Source of the DNA: Thermotogota bacterium | GTDB lineage: Bacteria > Thermotogota > Thermotogae > UBA12178 | Length of the DNA stretch: 64,000 nt | Direction: 5' to 3' | Assembly: GCA_003538775.1 (NCBI GenBank) | Contig: DPRG01000105.1 | Span: forward strand, 12,476 to 76,475 | In this document: in pieces, positions 22,269 to 58,208 of the stretch | How the letters are laid out: each line of letters begins with the position of its first letter | How positions within the stretch are numbered: the first letter of the stretch is position 1 | The notes under the pieces: generated by a model | Told to the model about the DNA's origin: nothing | Databases searched by the model: none | Seen by the model: the letters and a program-made list of their open reading frames with translations, nothing else | Translations under genes and position numbers: made by a program

Positions 22269-23135
22269 TTGAAAAATGTTATTTTGCTATCGTTCGTATT
22301 TTTAACTGTAATTTTGACGTTTGCAGCTCCTCTTGATGGAATACTCGAAAGGTATCAGAAAGCGTATTTTGAGGGAAGACGATTCCTTATAGACATGAAT
22401 TCGGGCAGTACTGTACGATACGAGCAGGTGGTAAAAGAGGGAAACGACAAGCTTGTCACGGTCATATCACCGGAGCGTATTGTCTGGTTGCGTTTTCAGG
22501 AGAGATATTACATACAAAAAGACACGGGACTCCTGGAGCTTTCGTTTCCCATATACGATCTGGAAGACTATTTGATGGACGTTCTAAAGCGTGGAGATTA
22601 CGAGCTCTTAGCACACAAACGTGATGGTTCAGGAGATGTTTATGTTTTGAAAAGTGGTGTTCAGGTTTTCACGATATGGGTAGGAGAAGATGGTTTCATT
22701 GACAAGATCGTGAGAGAGCTGCCGCCGGGCTACCGCAACGCTTTGATCTACGAATATCACCAGATAAAAGAACTGGGCGAAACTGTAAGAAGATACTGGC
22801 TTCAGCATCCAGTGGAAGGCAGGATAACATCGAGTCTTGCTCCAGTTCTCAGACGAATACCCAAGTACTTCGCATGGTCTGATCTGAGTTTTTTCAAGGT
22901 AAAAGATGAGAGCATTCCTGTTATTTATGGTATCACGAACGATGGTAACAAGGTGTCCATAATTGATCTGGACGGCTTAAGCGATTCGGTTGTCACACAG
23001 ATACTTCAGAGGTTTTCGGAAAAGGCGTTTTCTTTTTATGTCAGAAAGAATGAAGATGGATCGAAATTCCTGTTCGTGAGTGATTCGGATAGTGAGTATC
23101 TGGTAGAACTTGCCCGGAAGCTCTTTGAAGATTGA
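22269..23135 (+). CDS. secreted hypothetical protein (signal peptide) co-transcribed with ECF sigma/anti-sigma
   Basis: N-terminal signal peptide MKNVILLSFVFLTVILTFAAP; no recognisable catalytic motif. Confidence 0.5.
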   Translation: MKNVILLSFVFLTVILTFAAPLDGILERYQKAYFEGRRFLIDMNSGSTVRYEQVVKEGNDKLVTVISPERIVWLRFQERYYIQKDTGLLELSFPIYDLEDYLMDVLKRGDYELLAHKRDGSGDVYVLKSGVQVFTIWVGEDGFIDKIVRELPPGYRNALIYEYHQIKELGETVRRYWLQHPVEGRITSSLAPVLRRIPKYFAWSDLSFFKVKDESIPVIYGITNDGNKVSIIDLDGLSDSVVTQILQRFSEKAFSFYVRKNEDGSKFLFVSDSDSEYLVELARKLFED

Positions 23136-46810: not shown

Positions 46811-46850
46811 TAAAACATGGTAACTCTCACTAAAACGGGAGGTGGCGAGT

Positions 46851-47591
46851 ATGAAAAAGTGGCTTGCGGTTTTGTTGGTAACGGTGATAGGAGTATCCCT
46901 GATGGCTGGCATCCTTGAGGAGATCAAAGCTCGCGGGTACATAGTTATGGGGACTGAAGCAACCTTTCCACCGTTTGAGTTTCGGAATGAGAAAAACGAA
47001 GTTGTTGGATTTGACATCGACATTGGTAAGAAGATCGCAGAAGCGCTTGGTGTTGAACTCAGAATCGTTGACATGCCGTTTGATAGTTTGATTCCCTCCC
47101 TTATCACTAAGAAGATCGATATAGCCATTGCAGCCATGACAATCACCGAAGAGCGCAAGAAGTCAGTGAACTTTTCAGATCCTTATTTCAAGGCAGGACA
47201 GGTAATAGTGGTTAGGAGAGGAGCACCGGCTATCAAAACCCTTGAGGAACTCAAGGGCAAAAAGGTGGCAGTGCAGCAGGGCACAACAGGTGATCTGATA
47301 GTTTCAGAGATCGAGGGAGTAAAGATAAGCCGCTTTGCTCGATTCACAGATGCCTTTCTTGAACTCATGAACGGACGTGTGGATGCCGTGGTCCTTGATT
47401 TTGCGCCGGCGAGAGCGTATGTGGCCATGTATCCTCAGCTTGTGATAACCAGCGATGTGCTTTCGGAAGAAGAGTACGGAATTGCGGTTAGAAAGGAAGA
47501 CACGGATCTCCTTGAGTTCATAAACAGTGTACTGCGAAACATGAAGAAGAGTCCTTACGATCTTCTGGTTGAAAAGTGGTTCTCGGAATGA
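46851..47591 (+). CDS. polar amino-acid ABC transporter substrate-binding protein
   Basis: SBP_bac_3 family; signal peptide; ATG 46851 after GGGAGGTGG. Confidence 0.8.
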   Translation: MKKWLAVLLVTVIGVSLMAGILEEIKARGYIVMGTEATFPPFEFRNEKNEVVGFDIDIGKKIAEALGVELRIVDMPFDSLIPSLITKKIDIAIAAMTITEERKKSVNFSDPYFKAGQVIVVRRGAPAIKTLEELKGKKVAVQQGTTGDLIVSEIEGVKISRFARFTDAFLELMNGRVDAVVLDFAPARAYVAMYPQLVITSDVLSEEEYGIAVRKEDTDLLEFINSVLRNMKKSPYDLLVEKWFSE

Positions 47592-47619
47592 ACAAGAATT
47601 GTCGGGGTTGATGAATTGA

Positions 47620-48273
47620 ATGCCGTACTGGCTGGAAGCGGTAATCGATTCGTTTCCTTATCTTCTTTCTGGAGCATTGATAACCCTTGAAATAACAGCT
47701 CTGGCCATCCTTCTTGGATTGCTTATAGGAACCTTTGTTGGAATGGCTCGTTTATCGAAAAAACGCTGGATAAATGCCCCTGCAACCGTTTATGTTGAGT
47801 TTATCCGAGGTACACCGCTTCTCGTACAGATATTCATCATATACTTCGGTCTTCCATCGCTGGGCATTTACATCGACCGATTCCCTGCGGGGGTGCTGGC
47901 ACTGGGTATCAACAGCGGGGCATATGTGGCAGAGATCGTCCGAGCGGGCATACAGTCGGTCAGCAAGGGGCAGTACGAAGCAGCTCGCTCTCTGGGCCTG
48001 AGCCATTGGCAGGCTATGAGATATGTCGTGCTGCCCCAGGCCTTTCGTAATATTCTTCCTGCCCTGGGTAACGAGTTCATAACATTGACAAAAGACAGCT
48101 CTCTCGTGTCGGTCATCGCGATAGAAGAGCTTTTGAGAAGGGGAACAATAGTAATAAGCAGAACCTTTCAATCTTTTTCGGTTTATTCCGCGGTTGCTTT
48201 GCTGTATTTTGTCATGACCTTTTCACTCTCGAGGTTAACGAGATGGGTGGAAAAGAGGCTGGCGATACCATGA
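47620..48273 (+). CDS. amino-acid ABC transporter permease (HisM/GlnP family)
   Basis: EAA loop region ...[21 protein letters not shown]. Confidence 0.85.
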
Positions 48274-49004
48274 GCGTACTTCTGGAAGTGGAGGATCTGT
48301 GGAAGTCTTTTGGCGATCTCCAGGTGCTTAAGGGAGTGAATATGAGTTTAAAACCGGGAGAGGTGCTCGTTGTAATTGGCCCGAGTGGAGGAGGGAAGAG
48401 CACTTTTTTGCGCTGTATTAACCACCTGGAGGTTCCCGATAGAGGTCGTGTGGTTTTCGATGGCATAGAGGTAAAAGAAGGGAAAAACATAAATCTTATA
48501 AGATCAAAGATTGGAATGGTTTTCCAGCAGTTCAACCTTTTCCCTCACTTGACTGTTCTTGAAAATCTGATACTGGCACCTGTGAAAGTGAAGGGCATGG
48601 ATGAGGTCGAAGCAAAAGATAAGGCGAAGAAACTCTTGAAAAGAGTGGGACTTCTTGAAAAAGCAGACGCTTATCCTTCACAGCTTTCTGGTGGTCAGCA
48701 GCAGCGTGTGGCCATTGCGAGAGCGTTGATGATGGATCCCAAACTGATGCTTTTCGATGAGCCCACGTCGGCGCTCGATCCTGAGCTGGTGGCTGAGGTG
48801 CTTGAAGTCATGAAGACACTCGCAATGGATGGAATGACGATGATCGTGGTGACGCATGAAATGGGATTTGCAAAAGAGGTAGCCGATAGAGTATGCTTCA
48901 TGGACGGTGGGGTGATTGTTGAAGAGGCTCCTCCTGAAGTTTTTTTCACCAGTCCAAGGAACCCAAGAACCAGAGAATTTCTTTCGAAGATTCTGGGTGT
49001 GTGA
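48270..49004 (+). CDS. amino-acid ABC transporter ATP-binding protein
   Basis: GPSGGGKST Walker [16 protein letters not shown] signature, [12 protein letters not shown] Walker B. Confidence 0.9.
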
Positions 49005-51775: not shown

Positions 51776-52772
51776 ATCTTCTCCTGTGATAGTGGGGATA
51801 GAAACTTCCTGTGATGAAACGGCTGTTGGCGTGCTGGAAGGACCCAAAAGGGTCCTTTCTAATGTTGTTGTTTCTCAGATTCTGGAGCATGCCAGATACG
51901 GCGGAGTGGTACCGGAAATAGCCTCTCGCCAGCATGCGAAACTCATAGATGAGGTTTTCCAGAAAGCGATTGCTGATGCTGGTATTGGTTTAGAGGATAT
52001 TTCGGCTGTGGCAGTTACGGAAGGGCCTGGGCTTGTAGGGGCATTGCTTGTCGGTATATCCTTTGCGAAGGCGCTGGCATACGCTATAAACAAACCTATC
52101 ATAGCTGTAAACCATCTCATGGCGCATATTTACGTTAACTTTCTTTTCTTCGAAGAGCTTTCTCCTCCCTTTCTGGTTCTTCTGGTTTCCGGTGGTCACA
52201 CTGAACTTCTGGAGTTTCGTAGTTATGGTGATATAGTTCTTCTGGGTAGGACGCGTGACGATGCAGCTGGAGAGGCTTTCGATAAGGTGGCGAGATTGCT
52301 CAATCTTGGCTATCCTGGCGGTCCAGCGATCGAAAAAGCGGCGGAGAGCGGTGAAGCCGTGTATCGTTTTCCCAGAGCTCTGCTAGATGAGGATACTTTT
52401 GACTTTAGTTTCAGCGGTTTGAAGACATCGGTCCTGTATTTTTTGAAGGAACATCCCGAGGCGAAGATAGAAGACGTTGCAGCCTCGTTTCAGGAAGCCG
52501 TTGTTGATACGCTTATATCGAAGCTGGAACATGCAATCAGAAAACGAGGTTCGAAGAAAGTAGTCCTTGCTGGTGGTGTCGCGGCAAATAAACTCTTGAG
52601 AAAAAGAGTAGAGCAACTTTCGAATAAGTATGGTTTCCAGTCCTTCTTCCCACCTGTATCCCTGTGTACTGACAACGGCATAATGGTCGCAAGGGCGGGT
52701 TTTGAAAAATATCTGAGAAAAGAGTTTTCCGATCTTAGCTTGAGCGCTTCTCCCTCTCTCTTGCTTTTTTGA
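51762..52772 (+). CDS. tsaD: tRNA N6-adenosine threonylcarbamoyltransferase
   Basis: [13 protein letters not shown], Kae1/TsaD family; start ATG 51762 (overlaps clpX) or GTG 51786. Confidence 0.9.
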
Positions 52773-54135
52773 TACCACTTTGAACTGCCTGACCGGCGTA
52801 GCGGGGCACTGCGATCATCTTTCGACCAACTGCTGCGAGCACTGCTTGTACGACTATCCGTGGTTTTTCGTATTTTCTCACTTTAACCTTTCTAAGCACA
52901 AACAGAGAGGCAATACGCAAAGTTCCTGAAGTTAGAAACATCAGTTTGATACCTTCGAAGTCGAAGCCTATGAACGAGAAATGCTTGTCTACGAAGATCT
53001 CTCCTAAATATCCTCCTGCTAAAGATCCCGCTATTGACCCGAAAGCCACGCTGGAAAAAAAGAGGGAGAAGTAAGCAGAGGAATGAAATCCTGCGACTTC
53101 AAATGCCAGTGAGAATACTGCAAGGTTAACTGCAGCCCAGCCAATGCCGGCGGTGATGGCGTCTATAGGAAGGAGGGATCTCATAGTTGATTCGGCCATG
53201 AAAAGCCATAAAAATGGTAGCCATGATACGGTGAAAATCCCTATCTGTGCAACGACTTTACTGCCGTATTTGTCCACCGTGGTTCCCCAAATGTAGTAAG
53301 CGGGTAAGGCAACGGCACCAGAAAGAATGGAATAGAAGCCTATAATTGAGTAGCTTAGCTTCAGAAAGCGTATCTGGTAGAGAGTGAAATACGGTGCTGA
53401 TACGTAGATCGCGAAGTTCCAGAGGAAGGCGTAAAACATGAATTTTCGAAAGTTTGCATCTTTCAAACAGGCTTTGAGCCCCGCAAGTGCACCGAACACG
53501 CGCGATGGTGGTTCGTACTGTATTGTCAGCAACCCAAGAGAAAGAAATCCAAAGATCAGACCTATCGATATAACAAGTAGATAATTGTAAGGTTCAACGA
53601 CAGCGTCTAAGATATTCGAATAAAGAAGAGTGGCAAAGATGGTTACAAGGGAACTCCCAAGATTTCTGATTCCGAAGAACCTTCCTCTGAGATTTTCAGG
53701 TACAAGGCCTCTTATCCAGGAATTCCAGGCGTTGCCGGCAAATGTCAACGCGACTTGAGAGATCATGAACATGTATAAAAAGAGCTTTGCATCCCTAAGA
53801 CCTATGGAAACCGCGACTGCCAGAACAATCCATGGAAGGCGTGATATCAGGGACGAAACAACCACAATTTTCTTGCGACTTTTTATCCTGTCCAAGATAA
53901 ACGGGGTGAAGAGCTGGAAAAACTGGAAGGCTACTGGTAGTGCAAAAGCCAGACTGAGAATTAACTCTGAGGCGTTGAAATAAAGACCAAGGGACGTGAG
54001 TAAGAATCCCTGAGAAAGCAGGAAAAACCCGGTGTAGAAAGCGCCTTCAAATATAGAAACGTTTATAGCTTTTCTGATTTGTGGATCTAAGGGAGTTTCT
54101 TCCAGTTCGCCGTTATTCGTTTCAAAGTCAGCCAT
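52735..54135 (-). CDS. MFS transporter
   Basis: 12-14 TM segments, 466 aa. Confidence 0.7.
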   Translation of the reverse strand: MADFETNNGELEETPLDPQIRKAINVSIFEGAFYTGFFLLSQGFLLTSLGLYFNASELILSLAFALPVAFQFFQLFTPFILDRIKSRKKIVVVSSLISRLPWIVLAVAVSIGLRDAKLFLYMFMISQVALTFAGNAWNSWIRGLVPENLRGRFFGIRNLGSSLVTIFATLLYSNILDAVVEPYNYLLVISIGLIFGFLSLGLLTIQYEPPSRVFGALAGLKACLKDANFRKFMFYAFLWNFAIYVSAPYFTLYQIRFLKLSYSIIGFYSILSGAVALPAYYIWGTTVDKYGSKVVAQIGIFTVSWLPFLWLFMAESTMRSLLPIDAITAGIGWAAVNLAVFSLAFEVAGFHSSAYFSLFFSSVAFGSIAGSLAGGYLGEIFVDKHFSFIGFDFEGIKLMFLTSGTLRIASLFVLRKVKVRKYEKPRIVVQAVLAAVGRKMIAVPRYAGQAVQSGIKKAREREKRSS

Positions 54136-54691
54136 TGTAGTCCATATCTTTCACAATGTCAGGATCTTCAATTGGGACCCTGTGCAAAAGCTCCGGCCTA
54201 TTCTTTATGAGTTGTTTGATACCTTCATCCCCTCTTAAAGAGAGTATGTATGGAAAAGCCGGCGATTTTACAACAGTGGGAAAGCCTTTCGTGTCGTGGA
54301 AATAAGCTGAAACAATTGGCTTTTCCGAGTTTTGAGCTTCTTCTATCACTTTTTTTATCACTTCAGTTTTCACCAGGGGCATATCGCCAAGGAGAAACAT
54401 CACTGTATCGCAGTTCTCAGCGGCTCCCGCAGAAACGGCTGCTCTCACCGAGGAGGCTATTCCTTCCTCGTAGTTTAAGTTATAAACCACCTCAAGATCG
54501 AAAAGTGTGAATCTATCTCTGATTTCTTTCCATAAAGGATTGACAATGATGATCTTTCTTCGTGCGTCCAGAGGTGCGACGTTATCGATTATCCATTGGA
54601 GCATCGGTTTGCCGTTGAAGTCGGCGACGAGTTTATGGGAACCAAAACGTTCCGATTTGCCCGCGGCGAGAATGGCAACGCAGAGATTCAA
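54128..54691 (-). CDS. MobA/MocA-like nucleotidyltransferase (molybdenum cofactor cytidylyl/guanylyltransferase family)
   Basis: LAAGKSERFG NTP_transf_3 motif; TTG start after AAGGAGGG. Confidence 0.6.
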   Translation of the reverse strand: MNLCVAILAAGKSERFGSHKLVADFNGKPMLQWIIDNVAPLDARRKIIIVNPLWKEIRDRFTLFDLEVVYNLNYEEGIASSVRAAVSAGAAENCDTVMFLLGDMPLVKTEVIKKVIEEAQNSEKPIVSAYFHDTKGFPTVVKSPAFPYILSLRGDEGIKQLIKNRPELLHRVPIEDPDIVKDMDYNG

Positions 54692-54693
54692 CT

Positions 54694-55155
54694 TTATCCC
54701 TCCTTGGTGATAAGGTTTTCCACCGCTTCAAGTATTTTAACGTAGCCTGTGCAACGGCAAAGGTTTCCCTCTAATGCTTTGTATATTTCTTCTCTGGAAG
54801 GTCGGGGGTTTTTCATTAAAAGGGCTTTTGTTGACATCACAAAACCGGGTGTGCAGAATCCACACTGGACAGCTCCGGCATCGACGAAGGCTTTCTGTAT
54901 TGGGTCGGGTTCGTCGTCTTTTGAGAGTCCTTCTATGGTGATGACGTCACGGCCGTCAAGCTCTGGCGCGAGCATCAGGCAGGAATTCACAGCTCTGCCG
55001 TCAACGATGATAGTGCACGCACCACACTCTCCCTCTCCGCAGCCTTCTTTCGTACCTGTGAGTCCCAGCTCTTCTCGAAGAAGGTCCAGAACCCTTTGAT
55101 CTTCTCTAACATCCATTTCTAAACGCTCACCATTCAGTGTGAATCTTATCTTCAT
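54694..55155 (-). CDS. (2Fe-2S)-binding small subunit of a xanthine dehydrogenase/aldehyde oxidoreductase-family molybdoenzyme
   Basis: CGEGECGACT and ...C.C.GY..I cysteine motifs; start at internal ATG 55155 after GGAGG. Confidence 0.8.
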   Translation of the reverse strand: MKIRFTLNGERLEMDVREDQRVLDLLREELGLTGTKEGCGEGECGACTIIVDGRAVNSCLMLAPELDGRDVITIEGLSKDDEPDPIQKAFVDAGAVQCGFCTPGFVMSTKALLMKNPRPSREEIYKALEGNLCRCTGYVKILEAVENLITKEG

Positions 55156-55171
55156 TTTCCTGGGCCTCCTT

Positions 55172-55933
55172 TTATACGAGCAGGCGTTTAACAACCTCCT
55201 CAACGGGAATGTCCTGCACGTTTATATTTTCACCCAGCTCCACCTTCAGTGCATGTATGGTGGGTTCATCCGCTACGAGTGCGTTGATTCCAAGATGTGT
55301 TCTATTTATGGAGAAAAGGCGGAACCTTTCAAGCCCTTTCACATCGGTGGGTAGTGAAATTTGACGAAAGTTCGAGAGCAGGTCTATTGGACCATTGAAA
55401 AGCACCTTTCTACCCTTGAAAATCACCAGTCGATCACATAATTTCAACAAGGAAAAGGGGTTCGTTGAAGATACAAAAAAACCAGAAGCGCTTTCTTTTT
55501 TCTCCTTAATAAGGGGCAAAAAACGTTCTTTGAAAGCCGATCCCATGGTATCGATTATGGAGTCTAAAATCAAGAGATCAATCTTCATGGCCATACCTAA
55601 AACTCCGTATAAGAACGCAATCATTTCGTCTGAAAGTTCTTCAAGGGGAGTTTTCATAGAAACACCGAGATGAGAAATTTCGTGGAAGAAGAGGGCTTCG
55701 TCGAGTTTACCCATTCGCCTGAAGAACTTGAAGATCTTTTCCAGATTCCATTTTGGATTAAGATCTTCGGGATTTTTAAGATATAGCTTTCTCACACCTT
55801 TCCCCGATTTAACTTTCAGACCTTCGATCGATCCAAGTTCAGCAGCGCATTTCAATATACCCGACGCCAGATCGCCGCGATCTGCAAGAACAAGCATTTC
55901 ACCTTTGGAGATTTCAAGATTCAATTCTCCCAA
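55172..55933 (-). CDS. degenerate ABC-ATPase-like protein (all nucleotide-binding motifs lost)
   Basis: Collinear with ABC NBD, but Walker A is ADRGDLASG, signature is LSDEMIAFLYG, Walker B is LLILDSIID and the H-loop is absent; possible N-terminal extension to CTG 55984. Confidence 0.5.
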   Translation of the reverse strand: MGELNLEISKGEMLVLADRGDLASGILKCAAELGSIEGLKVKSGKGVRKLYLKNPEDLNPKWNLEKIFKFFRRMGKLDEALFFHEISHLGVSMKTPLEELSDEMIAFLYGVLGMAMKIDLLILDSIIDTMGSAFKERFLPLIKEKKESASGFFVSSTNPFSLLKLCDRLVIFKGRKVLFNGPIDLLSNFRQISLPTDVKGLERFRLFSINRTHLGINALVADEPTIHALKVELGENINVQDIPVEEVVKRLLV

Positions 55934-55980
55934 ACCTTCGACAGGGAGGTTTTCGATTTTTAAAAGAACGTTCGACTTGC

Positions 55981-56880
55981 TCAGTCGAGGTCACTCCTCA
56001 ATCCAAAGGTTGAGAGGATGATACTGTCGCGGTTTCTCCACTTCTCTTTTGTTTTCACTCTCAATTCGAGAAATACTCTTCGCCCAAGAAGAAATTCAAT
56101 ATCTTTTCTCGAAAGTGTACCGATCTCTTTAATCATTCGACCTCCTTTGCCAATTATAATGCCCTTTTGTGAATCTCGTTCCACGTATATAGTGGCGAGA
56201 ATGTAAACCACACCGTTCTCTCTTTCTTCTAAAGCATCCACGCTAACACCGGTTGAATGCGGAACCTCCTGAGACGTTAAATTGAAGATCTTTTCACGGA
56301 TGAGCTCTGCTATCATGAATTCCAGCGGCCTGTCTGTGACCATATCCTCCGGATAATACTGGGGTCCTTCAGGAAGCCTATCCAGGATTTTCTGCAAAAG
56401 AACGTCCAGGTTTTCACCGGTGATGGAAGAACAACAAACTGCATCCACTATTTGAGTGGTATACGTTTTTGCCATGTTCTCTATTCTTTGACAGACTTCT
56501 CTATCTTTGACGAGGTCGATCTTGTTTATTACGAGTATGGTATCGACTTTCGCTTCTTCTATGTACCTGGCAACATAGGCTTCCGGTTTGCCAAAGCCTT
56601 CAGAAGCGTCCACAACGAACAGGATTAAATCGACCCCCTGCATTGCCCTCACTGCTATTTTAACCATGTATTCGCCAAGTTTATGTAGTGGTTTGTGAAT
56701 ACCGGGTGTGTCAGTGAATACTATCTGAAAATCTTTCCCCGTTAATATGCAGTTGATCCTGTTGCGTGTGGTTTGGGGTTTGTCAGAAACGATAACCACC
56801 TTTCGCTTCATGAGTGCGTTTATAAGTGTGGATTTTCCAACATTGGGTTTTCCCGCGACCGCAACAAACCCGCTCTTCAA
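55981..56880 (-). CDS. era: GTPase Era
   Basis: G1 [11 protein letters not shown]3 DTPG, G4 NKID, C-terminal KH domain; TTG start 56880 after AGAGGTGA (track 56931). Confidence 0.9.
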
Positions 56881-56962
56881 ATTATCACCTCTGTCCGTAC
56901 TGTATATTTGTATAAAAGTGATATACTTCAAACGAGATTATAACATCGAAAGGGGTCTTTCA

Positions 56963-57676
56963 ATGGGTAAAAGAACGCTGAGATTGTCGTTAACATTGAT
57001 GATAGAAGCACTGATTTTCTTCCTGCTTTTGAATTTTCACGCTCGCTTGGTTGGATTTTTAGACCTCATACCGCGGAACGTTCTGGAATTTCTTCTTGGC
57101 CTGAAGCAACAATGGCTGGGTTCGCTGAAGTATGATCTTCAAGTTTTTATGTGGTTCACATGGTTTTCCGTACTTCTACCCTTGATTGTTTTGATAACCG
57201 CTTCTATAACTTCGCAGCGTTATTTAAGGGAACCTCAAAGTACTTTAGATAAGGCATATCTTTCGAAACGTACCAGATTTGGCTTTTACACTCTGGGATG
57301 GTACAAAATGATCGTGGATGTGGGGCTTGTGTCGTTGGCTGGAGGCTTTTTGAACTTTTTTGTATCAACGCCCATGGAAATTCGTTATCCTGCTTTGATT
57401 TCCATCGTTATTGGAAGTTGGTTCATTGCAGCCATTTCGGCTTTGATTGTGGTTATCATGGGAACTCGAGCGGTGGGAGTGGTCCTCGCTGTGCTTGCGG
57501 GTATGGGAATGGTATTTGTTTTGCCTGATTTCCTCCCTATTGGTCTGCTTCGCTATGGTTGTCTTCAATCTGCCTTGAATATACCCGAATATCTCCTCAC
57601 CTATGCCATGGTGGAAGGAATTCATTTAATTGTGATATTGCTTAAACAAAGATTACCGAGAATAGTCATCGATTGA
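56963..57676 (+). CDS. hypothetical integral membrane protein
   Basis: 6-7 hydrophobic segments; start ATG 56963 (track ORF extends antisense through era). Confidence 0.45.
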   Translation: MGKRTLRLSLTLMIEALIFFLLLNFHARLVGFLDLIPRNVLEFLLGLKQQWLGSLKYDLQVFMWFTWFSVLLPLIVLITASITSQRYLREPQSTLDKAYLSKRTRFGFYTLGWYKMIVDVGLVSLAGGFLNFFVSTPMEIRYPALISIVIGSWFIAAISALIVVIMGTRAVGVVLAVLAGMGMVFVLPDFLPIGLLRYGCLQSALNIPEYLLTYAMVEGIHLIVILLKQRLPRIVID

Positions 57677-58208
57677 CAGCATTGCGAAATACCTGGCCGG
57701 AGGCGTCTATCCAGACAAATAGAGGAAGATCGCGGACTTCGATAAGTCTGATCGCTTCGGGGCCCAGTTCTTCGAAAGCCAGAATATCGCTTTTCACTAC
57801 ACACGAGGCAAGCAGAGCGGCTACTCCAGAGGGTGTGACAAAATAAACCCTTCTGTATCTTTTGTTAAGCTCTTTTACGTATTCTGAACGATCACCTTTT
57901 CCTATGGTAGCGAGGACGCCCTGAAGGTAAAGAAATTCCAGATATTTGTCCATTCTCTTACTTGTAGTAGGGCCTATAGCTCCAGCAGGCATTGTGGGAA
58001 TGGGTTTTGCGGGTCCCGCGTAAAAAACGACGGTGTTGCTCAGGTCGATCGGGAGATTCTCACCTTTTTCTTTCATGTCAAAAAGTTTTTTCTGTGCCTG
58101 ATCACGCATGACCAGCACGTGTCCGCATAAAAGAACATGCTCACCCGCGTGTAAGTTTTTAAAAGATTCCAGACTGTAAGGTGGCAAAATGCGAGTGACC
58201 TCCCTCAT
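57666..58208 (-). CDS. fumB: class-I fumarate hydratase (Fe-S hydro-lyase) beta subunit
   Basis: TtdB/FumA_C family, 180 aa, overlaps alpha subunit by 4 nt. Confidence 0.8.
   Translation of the reverse strand: MREVTRILPPYSLESFKNLHAGEHVLLCGHVLVMRDQAQKKLFDMKEKGENLPIDLSNTVVFYAGPAKPIPTMPAGAIGPTTSKRMDKYLEFLYLQGVLATIGKGDRSEYVKELNKRYRRVYFVTPSGVAALLASCVVKSDILAFEELGPEAIRLIEVRDLPLFVWIDASGQVFRNAVNR

Follow-up and report, generated by a model that had tools for sequence, protein, structure and literature searches.

An ATP-binding cassette homologue with degenerate catalytic motifs is maintained downstream of era in a few uncultured Thermotogota

By analyzing a stretch of 64,000 nucleotides of contig DPRG01000105.1 from a Thermotogota bacterium (assembly GCA_003538775.1; the whole stretch is called the window), we found that the minus-strand gene directly downstream of era, here named X, encodes a homologue of the ATP-binding cassette (ABC) ATPases that, judging from its residues, is not a functional member of this group. 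The reading that we rank first, with a probability of roughly 0.55, is that X would be a nucleotide-independent structural or regulatory subunit. We are much surer of the descent, the inactivity and the maintenance of X than of what its partner would be. The minus-strand frame is uninterrupted from 55990 to the TAA stop at 55174-55172, which confirms the intact reading frame claimed in a first-pass annotation of this DNA, and the preceding in-frame stop is a TGA at 55993-55991. The mechanical open reading frame (ORF) counts 253 residues and is headed by TTG 55933, and the NCBI records, from Thermotogota bacterium metagenome-assembled genomes (HCZ07006.1, MDI3517289.1 and MDK2864958.1), describe a 250-residue "hypothetical protein" that starts in all of them at TTG 55924. 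Residue 1 of X is here the Leu that opens LLKIENL (55966), and the coordinates of all features are collected in the table.

The first-pass annotation had aligned X collinearly with ABC nucleotide-binding domains (NBDs), and this homology was upheld by NCBIfam, PDB-profile and HMMER matches. First, the NCBIfam matches of X are ABC ATP-binding families only, with PmtA at the top (E = 1.4e-6), residues 77-267 of X being collinear with positions 85-276 of this 282-position profile. Second, a profile made from the three family sequences matched in the PDB Wzt (6m96, 6amx, 7k2t and 8dku; top E of 1.1e-4), TM0544, CbiO and TagH. Third, 1.84 billion representatives at 50% identity were searched exhaustively with HMMER, which gave a single match below 1e-10, the cluster of the X family itself, and 189 matches at E<=1e-3, the best at 1.1e-8. 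All the matches that we inspected are ABC ATPases, with a textbook Walker A in the top ones. Neither X nor either of its orthologues has a Pfam match at E<=10, and X therefore does not reach the gathering score of PF00005 (ABC_tran), a threshold exceeded by all the canonical relatives P0004, P0006, P0007 and P0032. The homology concerns NBDs of the ABC-2/Wzt/TagH/PmtA/NosF kind and includes their C-terminal domain as well as the core. Together, these matches show by homology that the ancestor of X was the nucleotide-binding subunit of an ABC-2 transporter (type V exporter-like, of the Wzt/TagH/PmtA/NosF-like kind).

Structure prediction led to the same fold. The AlphaFold2 model of X obtained with the alignment of the HMMER matches as input reached a predicted local distance difference test score (pLDDT) of 94.7 and a predicted template-modelling score (pTM) of 0.89, whereas the model made with the three family sequences alone (pLDDT 48) was unusable. 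Foldseek matched the former to ABC folds only, with the NBD fold recognized and with alignments of 266-296 columns to NosF, PmtCD and TM_1403, proteins that have a C-terminal domain of this kind. The modelled fold is thus ABC-like, as the first-pass annotation expected of a structure search. None of the PADLOC models, among them anti-phage ABC/AAA_21-type proteins, matched X at E<=1. Given that X occupies the slot before a [2Fe-2S] gene, we also considered a CoxM-like FAD medium subunit. This candidate was rejected because X has no Pfam FAD_binding_5 or CO_deh_flav_C domain and its fold matches are exclusively ABC; genuine FAD subunits are recognized in the clusters of Mesotoga and Kosmotoga. 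A phmmer match between X and the ORF at 22269-23135, which encodes a secreted-looking protein, was taken as noise (12 bits over 70 residues).

We read the motif columns from a 47-sequence alignment and from a 129-sequence MAFFT alignment, in which the equivalences are unambiguous. Both confirm that Walker A, signature, Walker B and H-loop are all degenerate in X. The Walker A Lys column holds K in 122/129 aligned sequences and A in X and its orthologues, the signature Gly column holds G in 120/129 and Glu in X (LSEEM in the orthologues), and the H-loop column is His in 116/129. In Walker B, the Asp column is invariant while the following catalytic position, which is E in 119/129, is Ser or Ala in the X orthologues (LILADS or LILTDA). 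The losses extend beyond these four motifs, since the Q-loop Gln is missing (the corresponding segment, KLYLKNP, has no Gln), the D-loop reads MG versus LD or GD in the canonical matches, and the A-loop aromatic segment is shortened. We observed the same losses in the orthologues P0002, P0003 and that of lineage L003 (57-58% identity) and in P0278 from the sister strain, the Walker A equivalents of the orthologues reading GDRGEVASC and GDRGGLASR; the search for orthologues with intact Walker motifs thus returned only degenerate ones. Since orthologues at 57-58% identity are degenerate alike, the losses are ancestral to the family. Also, the former P-loop (DRGD) and the former signature (SDEM) are both acidic and conserved. 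These replacements argue strongly that X is unable to bind ATP canonically or to hydrolyse it.

The identical X protein is called on 20 contigs that were independently assembled from an oil-production-facility metagenome, from several Logan runs and in GCA_029982715.1, and a sequencing error is therefore excluded. Beyond the window species, its sister strain and two related lineages, we found no further member by word-indexed search, in GTDB genomes, in JGI metagenomes or in the exhaustive HMMER search, where the family forms a single cluster. The known carriers of X are hence a handful of uncultured Thermotogota sampled at oil-field and hydrothermal sites. The 264-codon orthologues have no indels among them and share just one conserved Cys. 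Between lineages L001 and L003, synonymous (dS) and nonsynonymous (dN) divergence in X amount to 0.37 and 0.047, that is a dN/dS of 0.126, on par with era (0.112) and the other neighbours (0.184 for the 2Fe-2S gene, 0.089 for the MocA-like gene, 0.120 for fumarase alpha and 0.123 for the MFS gene). Between the window and L001, the proportion of synonymous differences (pS) is 0.78, which is saturated, and that of nonsynonymous differences (pN) is 0.25, similar to fumarase (0.22-0.24) and below the neighbouring membrane protein (0.34). These ratios bear out the proposal that X is maintained rather than decaying, and the substitution pattern shows it to be a protein-coding gene under ordinary purifying selection.

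Where translation of X begins was addressed from the N-terminal strand. LLKIENLPVEG is the best-conserved segment of X (0.70 identity) and forms strand 1 of the model (strand E2-10). Its codons differ between the window and L001 at 12 nucleotides, 8 of them at third positions, and 6 of the 8 changed codons are synonymous; within the window species they vary only synonymously (CTT/CTC). The strand had been noticed upstream of TTG 55933, and its conservation through synonymous changes shows, by the pattern of substitution, that it is translated. Between the upstream stop and TTG 55933, no ATG, GTG or TTG is present in the window species. The statement that TTG 55933 is the only canonical start thus holds upstream of it, while a second in-frame TTG at 55924 has to be added. 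In the same way, the CTG at 55984 with its GAGGAG is indeed there, but it is not the sole in-frame initiator in this interval, as ATC 55957 is also a table-11 initiator and may be a start of X as well.

The CTG stands in frame six codons before LLK in all five lineages (the window, L007, L016, L001 and L003), and its C is shared with era, where it ends the final Asp codon. The Shine-Dalgarno (SD)-like element is retained as GAGGAG or AAGGAG across lineages, so that the in-frame CTG and the SD-like element before it, singled out by the first-pass annotation, are kept in the five of them, 9 nucleotides apart. Canonical starts are distributed otherwise: L001 has TTG TTG at both Leu codons, L003 and L002 have CTG TTG, and the sister strain L016 uses a TTG further upstream, its product P0278 having 267 residues and beginning MNVLLKIEK. 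In the window species, the Leu codons are CTT/CTC-TTA and the upstream position is TCG, hence no canonical start there. This comparison indicates that the canonical start codons of X turn over among lineages, and we consider with moderate confidence that translation in the window species most likely starts at the CTG that overlaps the stop of era. A CTG start preceded by GAGGAG would, with similar confidence, couple the synthesis of X to that of Era. The NCBI entries starting at TTG 55924 would then, again with moderate confidence, omit about 20 residues including the first beta-strand, probably because gene callers ignore CTG as a start.

An Era-X fusion by -1 frameshift was considered and rejected, because the X-frame stop and the era stop are only three codons apart, with no slippery heptamer in between. 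The era stop and the CTG both fall within a perfect 6-bp hairpin (TCGACT-GAGCA-AGTCGA, 55972-55988, minus strand) that has a T-rich stretch after it; the 3' arm of the hairpin contains the TCG codon that replaces the TTG of the sister strain, and the hairpin is missing in L001 and L003. A scan of 52500-57800 for promoters and terminators gave counts no higher than the shuffled expectation.

Coordinates of gene X, its motifs and its neighbours in the window
Feature	Position	Strand	Remarks
Gene X, ABC-NBD-derived pseudo-ATPase	55172-55984	minus	proposed CTG 55984 to TAA 55174-55172
Homologous core of X, LLKIENL...RLLV	55175-55966	minus	264 residues
Codons of N-terminal beta-strand LLKIENLPVEG	55934-55966	minus	11 codons upstream of the first canonical start
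Proposed initiator CTG of X	55982-55984	minus	overlaps the era stop TGA (55981-55983) as CTGA
SD-like GAGGAG	55994-55999	minus	9 nucleotides upstream of the CTG, within the last codons of era
TCG codon	55973-55975	minus	TTG in sister strain L016; three codons upstream of the Leu codons
Downstream in-frame TTGs	55922-55933	minus	55933-55931 kept in all lineages; 55924-55922 is the NCBI start
Walker A equivalent ADRGDLASG	55859-55885	minus	no Lys, no Gly-rich loop; canonical G[RPK]NG[AS]GK[ST]T
HExxH (HEISH), family-specific	55670-55684	minus	helix preceding the signature loop; predicted helix 90-100
Signature (C-loop) equivalent LSDEM	55622-55636	minus	canonical [YLF]SxGM, a variant of LSGGQ
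Walker B equivalent DLLILDS	55559-55579	minus	canonical hhhhDE; Asp retained, catalytic Glu replaced by Ser
H-loop equivalent SSTN	55460-55471	minus	canonical SH; His replaced by Thr; Ala in orthologues (ASAN)
Linker and C-terminal domain of X	55175-55369	minus	residues about 200-264; from the reach of the PmtA profile to 276/282 and from Foldseek
era (GTPase Era)	55981-56880	minus	NCBIfam PRK00089, E 3.6e-108; TGA stop at 55983-55981; overlaps the CTG of X
XDH-family [2Fe-2S] small-subunit gene	54694-55155	minus	Pfam Fer2 and Fer2_2; NCBIfam XdhC/PucE-like; own AAGGAGG
MocA-like NTP transferase gene	54128-54691	minus	PF12804, E 1.7e-34; TIGR03310, E 2.3e-36, under the curated cutoff
MFS transporter gene	52735-54135	minus	PF07690; last gene of the string
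Orphan membrane protein	56960-57676	plus	about 6 hydrophobic segments by sequence reading; divergent from era

In every locus, the gene order is fumarase alpha, fumarase beta, an unannotated membrane protein in the opposite orientation, era, X, the [2Fe-2S] gene, the MocA-like gene and the MFS gene, beyond which TsaD and ClpX are encoded on the other strand. The order including the MFS gene is kept in L001, L015 and L005-L010. X therefore lies, as first described, between era and an orphan 2Fe-2S subunit, an arrangement that is fixed in all loci. With the CTG start, the spacings along era-X-[2Fe-2S]-MocA-like-MFS are -4, 16, 2 and -8 nucleotides. On sister contigs, era is called at 299 residues (start about 56880), and relatives are called at 300 or 351 residues, which makes the start of era uncertain as well; its mechanical ORF in the window is longer (55981-56931, minus strand, 316 residues from TTG 56931). 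Across the 64 kb window (1-64000), we found neither tRNA genes nor any Rfam family that reaches its gathering score.

The nearest homologues of the 2Fe-2S/MocA-like pair, at 68-75% identity, are found in Mesotoga, in Kosmotoga and in two further lineages. There, the pair sits in a large cluster of the XDH/purine-catabolism type (L011-L014 and L020-L022) that has no X and comprises an M20 peptidase, an OTCase-like protein, amidohydrolases, a PreA-like protein, a PALP enzyme, the pair, XdhC, two FAD subunits, a second 2Fe-2S subunit and a molybdenum (Mo) subunit. No Mo or FAD subunit gene is present in the 64 kb window. Since the outgroup pairs lie in XDH clusters devoid of X, the era-X-pair-MFS string is a rearrangement specific to the clade. 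That X might be a general companion of the pair was rejected on the same grounds, as the four outgroup lineages have the pair without X.

The absence of a partner permease, noted in the first-pass annotation, holds for permeases of the ABC type in the vicinity of X, but an MFS transporter belongs to the gene string and a clade-restricted protein with about six transmembrane segments (6-TM) lies beyond era. No canonical ABC-2 NBD or permease was found in the 64 kb window or in the sister-contig flanks that we saw, and the sole ABC system of the window (46842-49004) is a complete importer of the amino-acid type, with substrate-binding protein, permease and ATPase. The 6-TM orphan forms 3 clusters in 5.8 billion proteins, a narrow distribution that matches that of X, and its mechanical ORF reaches upstream to 56747, overlapping era. 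It has no family match in Pfam (E<=10), in NCBIfam or in the PDB profile search, and hhalign detected no similarity between it and the two proteins without annotation that are encoded downstream of P0032, a canonical relative of X. ABC-2 permeases are quick to diverge, and these null searches therefore neither prove nor exclude that the 6-TM orphan is one. Its co-distribution with X makes it a candidate partner.

In both sequence and structure, the closest matches of X are the ABC-2/type V NBDs (Wzt, TagH/TarH, PmtA/PmtC, NosF, TM_1403 and TM0544). X resembles them in the order of a RecA-like core, a helical subdomain and a C-terminal domain of about 65 residues, in its length class, and in two retained features, the Walker B Asp and the context of a signature of the [YLF]SxGM type. 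It differs from them by the loss of nucleotide-binding and catalytic residues, by the shortened A-loop region and by its failure against PF00005, and also by its place in the era operon rather than in a transporter operon, with no adjacent ABC-2 permease. Asymmetric ABC transporters (TM287/288, TAP1, CFTR NBD1 and EcfA/A') share with X the replacement of consensus residues in a domain kept for a structural or regulatory role. In these transporters, the degenerate NBD still has its Walker A and binds ATP, the degeneracy affects a single composite site, and the domain is either part of the transporter polypeptide or encoded alongside it. In contrast, X stands alone and has lost Walker A, signature, Q-loop, catalytic base and H-loop together. 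The ABC proteins of soluble machines, such as PhnK/PhnL on carbon-phosphorus (C-P) lyase, SufC/SmsC, MCR component A2, ABCE1 and ABC-F, are active ATPases with intact motifs, unlike X.

Among the matches of X, one protein is degenerate in a comparable manner. P0063 (L019, 1962-2702), of metagenomic origin, is a second, independent stand-alone ABC-like protein in which Walker A, signature, Walker B Glu and H-loop are degenerate, and hhalign aligned it with X over the C-terminal half of the NBD (probability 96%, E = 1.3e-9, about 27% identity over 107 columns). Like X, P0063 has no Pfam match and no permease neighbour, and S-x-x-NP replaces its H-loop. Unlike X, it is surrounded by TP_methylase, PfkB, CBS and MiaB-like radical SAM genes and is devoid of the C-terminal domain and of HExxH. 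The presence of P0063 suggests that fully degenerate stand-alone NBDs may be more than a one-off. In the literature, we did not find a fully degenerate stand-alone ABC NBD described, a weak negative as the coverage was incomplete.

As for the way in which X might work as a nucleotide-independent subunit, the C-terminal domain that it retains would serve for pairing and the helical subdomain for docking on its partner. In NBDs, the groove of the helical subdomain ordinarily accepts the coupling helix, and proteins of the PmtCD, NosF and TM_1403 types touch the partner NBD with their C-terminal domain. The surfaces left to X would be this groove, the C-terminal domain and the former ATP-sandwich face, now acidic. 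As partner, one may think of a soluble complex or of a membrane protein, the latter being either the MFS transporter or the 6-TM orphan. A scaffold, the more specific role suggested in the first-pass annotation, is one form that such a subunit may take.

Several points weigh against our preferred reading and against the CTG start that goes with it. The evidence on the fold is not independent of sequence homology, since the alignment behind the good model is dominated by canonical ABC ATPases and the family-only model is poor. As far as the sequence goes, X could bind a nucleotide in a non-canonical way. The 6-TM orphan has no detectable similarity to ABC-2 permeases and is encoded on the strand opposite to X. 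Regarding the start, the conservation of GAGGAG is not independent evidence because the era coding sequence constrains the same bases, and the agreement on the CTG frame comes from three deep lineages plus close strains, with a chance of about 1 in 3 per independent comparison. In addition, where the X genes of the window and of L001 or L003 are compared at a synonymous divergence that is saturated, no exact nucleotide match is longer than the 15-nucleotide GTCGAAGGTTTGGGA (55928-55942, minus strand), which holds TTG 55933 together with the SD-like GAAGG and GGGAG, for a chance expectation of about 1 in 4. The retention of this TTG in all lineages, within the longest exact run, makes internal initiation conceivable.

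If translation did begin at an internal TTG (55933 or 55924), X would be made without its first beta-strand and the upstream codons would be a recently orphaned remnant. These two TTGs are the sole canonical starts of the window species, the second is the one used by NCBI, and the first is surrounded by the conserved run just described. However, GAAGG directly abuts TTG 55933 without any spacer, the sister strain has a TTG upstream of the strand, and the 11 upstream codons show a coding pattern of substitution relative to L001 and only synonymous polymorphisms within the species, in a segment that is the best conserved of X and provides strand 1 of the modelled sheet. We therefore consider an internal start, an alternative that bears on the start alone, unlikely, though it deserves more credit than the alternatives that follow. 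Somewhat more doubtful is the proposal that X pairs, as the degenerate partner, with a canonical NBD in a heterodimeric ABC-2 ATPase and would thereby modulate a working exporter, this NBD and the permease being encoded elsewhere. The nearest relatives of X, NBDs of the ABC-2/Wzt/TagH/PmtA type, do dimerise, often through C-terminal domains such as the one that X retains, and P0020, P0032, P0071 and P0117 are partly degenerate, with an intact Walker A and an altered signature or H-loop. Yet the known degenerate subunits keep Walker A and bind ATP, whereas the loss of both Walker A and signature in X would damage both composite sites of any dimer that contains it; the lack of a canonical ABC-2 NBD or permease in the window and in the sister-contig flanks seen also speaks against this proposal.

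A metal-dependent activity, or a metal- or redox-binding role gained through the HExxH helix and the acidic residues and maybe tied to the [2Fe-2S] protein, appears improbable to us. HExxH is invariant in all X lineages (HEISH, or HEMNH in orthologues) and lies on a predicted helix, and it is missing at these columns in 126 canonical relatives and occurs anywhere in only 3/149 matches. The conserved acidic DRGD and SDEM, and the constant position of X about 16 nucleotides before the 2Fe-2S gene, fit such a role too. But the motif is short, no zincin fold, third metal ligand or peptidase family is evident for X, whose fold is that of an ABC NBD with one conserved Cys, and the 2Fe-2S/MocA-like pair does without X in Mesotoga, Kosmotoga and the two other lineages. 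Least credible of all, with hardly any weight and refuted as far as sequence data go, is that X is a pseudogene in decay, an artefact of sequencing or assembly, or an ORF arisen by chance. It has no Pfam family, no canonical start at the beginning of its frame in the window species and no catalytic motifs left, but the 264-codon frame is intact in all lineages despite saturated synonymous sites, selection on it equals that on its neighbours, and neither the identical copies on independent contigs nor the 189 significant ABC matches are what such an origin would leave.

Going beyond the reading of X as a structural or regulatory subunit, X and perhaps the independently degenerate P0063 family could represent an unrecognized class of stand-alone pseudo-ATPases of the ABC fold that moved from transport to housekeeping operons. 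X would in that case be co-translated with Era and bind its partner independently of nucleotide, as an ABC dimer or through the HExxH/acidic surface, thereby linking the expression of Era, a GTPase of ribosome assembly, to the redox or molybdoenzyme module formed by the [2Fe-2S] and MocA-like genes or to the clade-specific membrane protein. We regard this as speculative, with chances slightly below those of the heterodimeric ATPase and above those of a metal-dependent role.

The immediate impact of these observations is modest, given how few uncultured Thermotogota carry the family. They do expose a blind spot of annotation, as callers limited to ATG, GTG and TTG would shorten X by about 20 residues and Pfam misses it. 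ABC NBDs count among the ATPases studied most, and their catalytic motifs are regarded as defining. X, maintained without these motifs, would be a bacterial addition to the catalogue of pseudoenzymes, one that may show which functions, such as docking or constitutive dimerisation, are left to the ABC fold when nucleotide plays no part.

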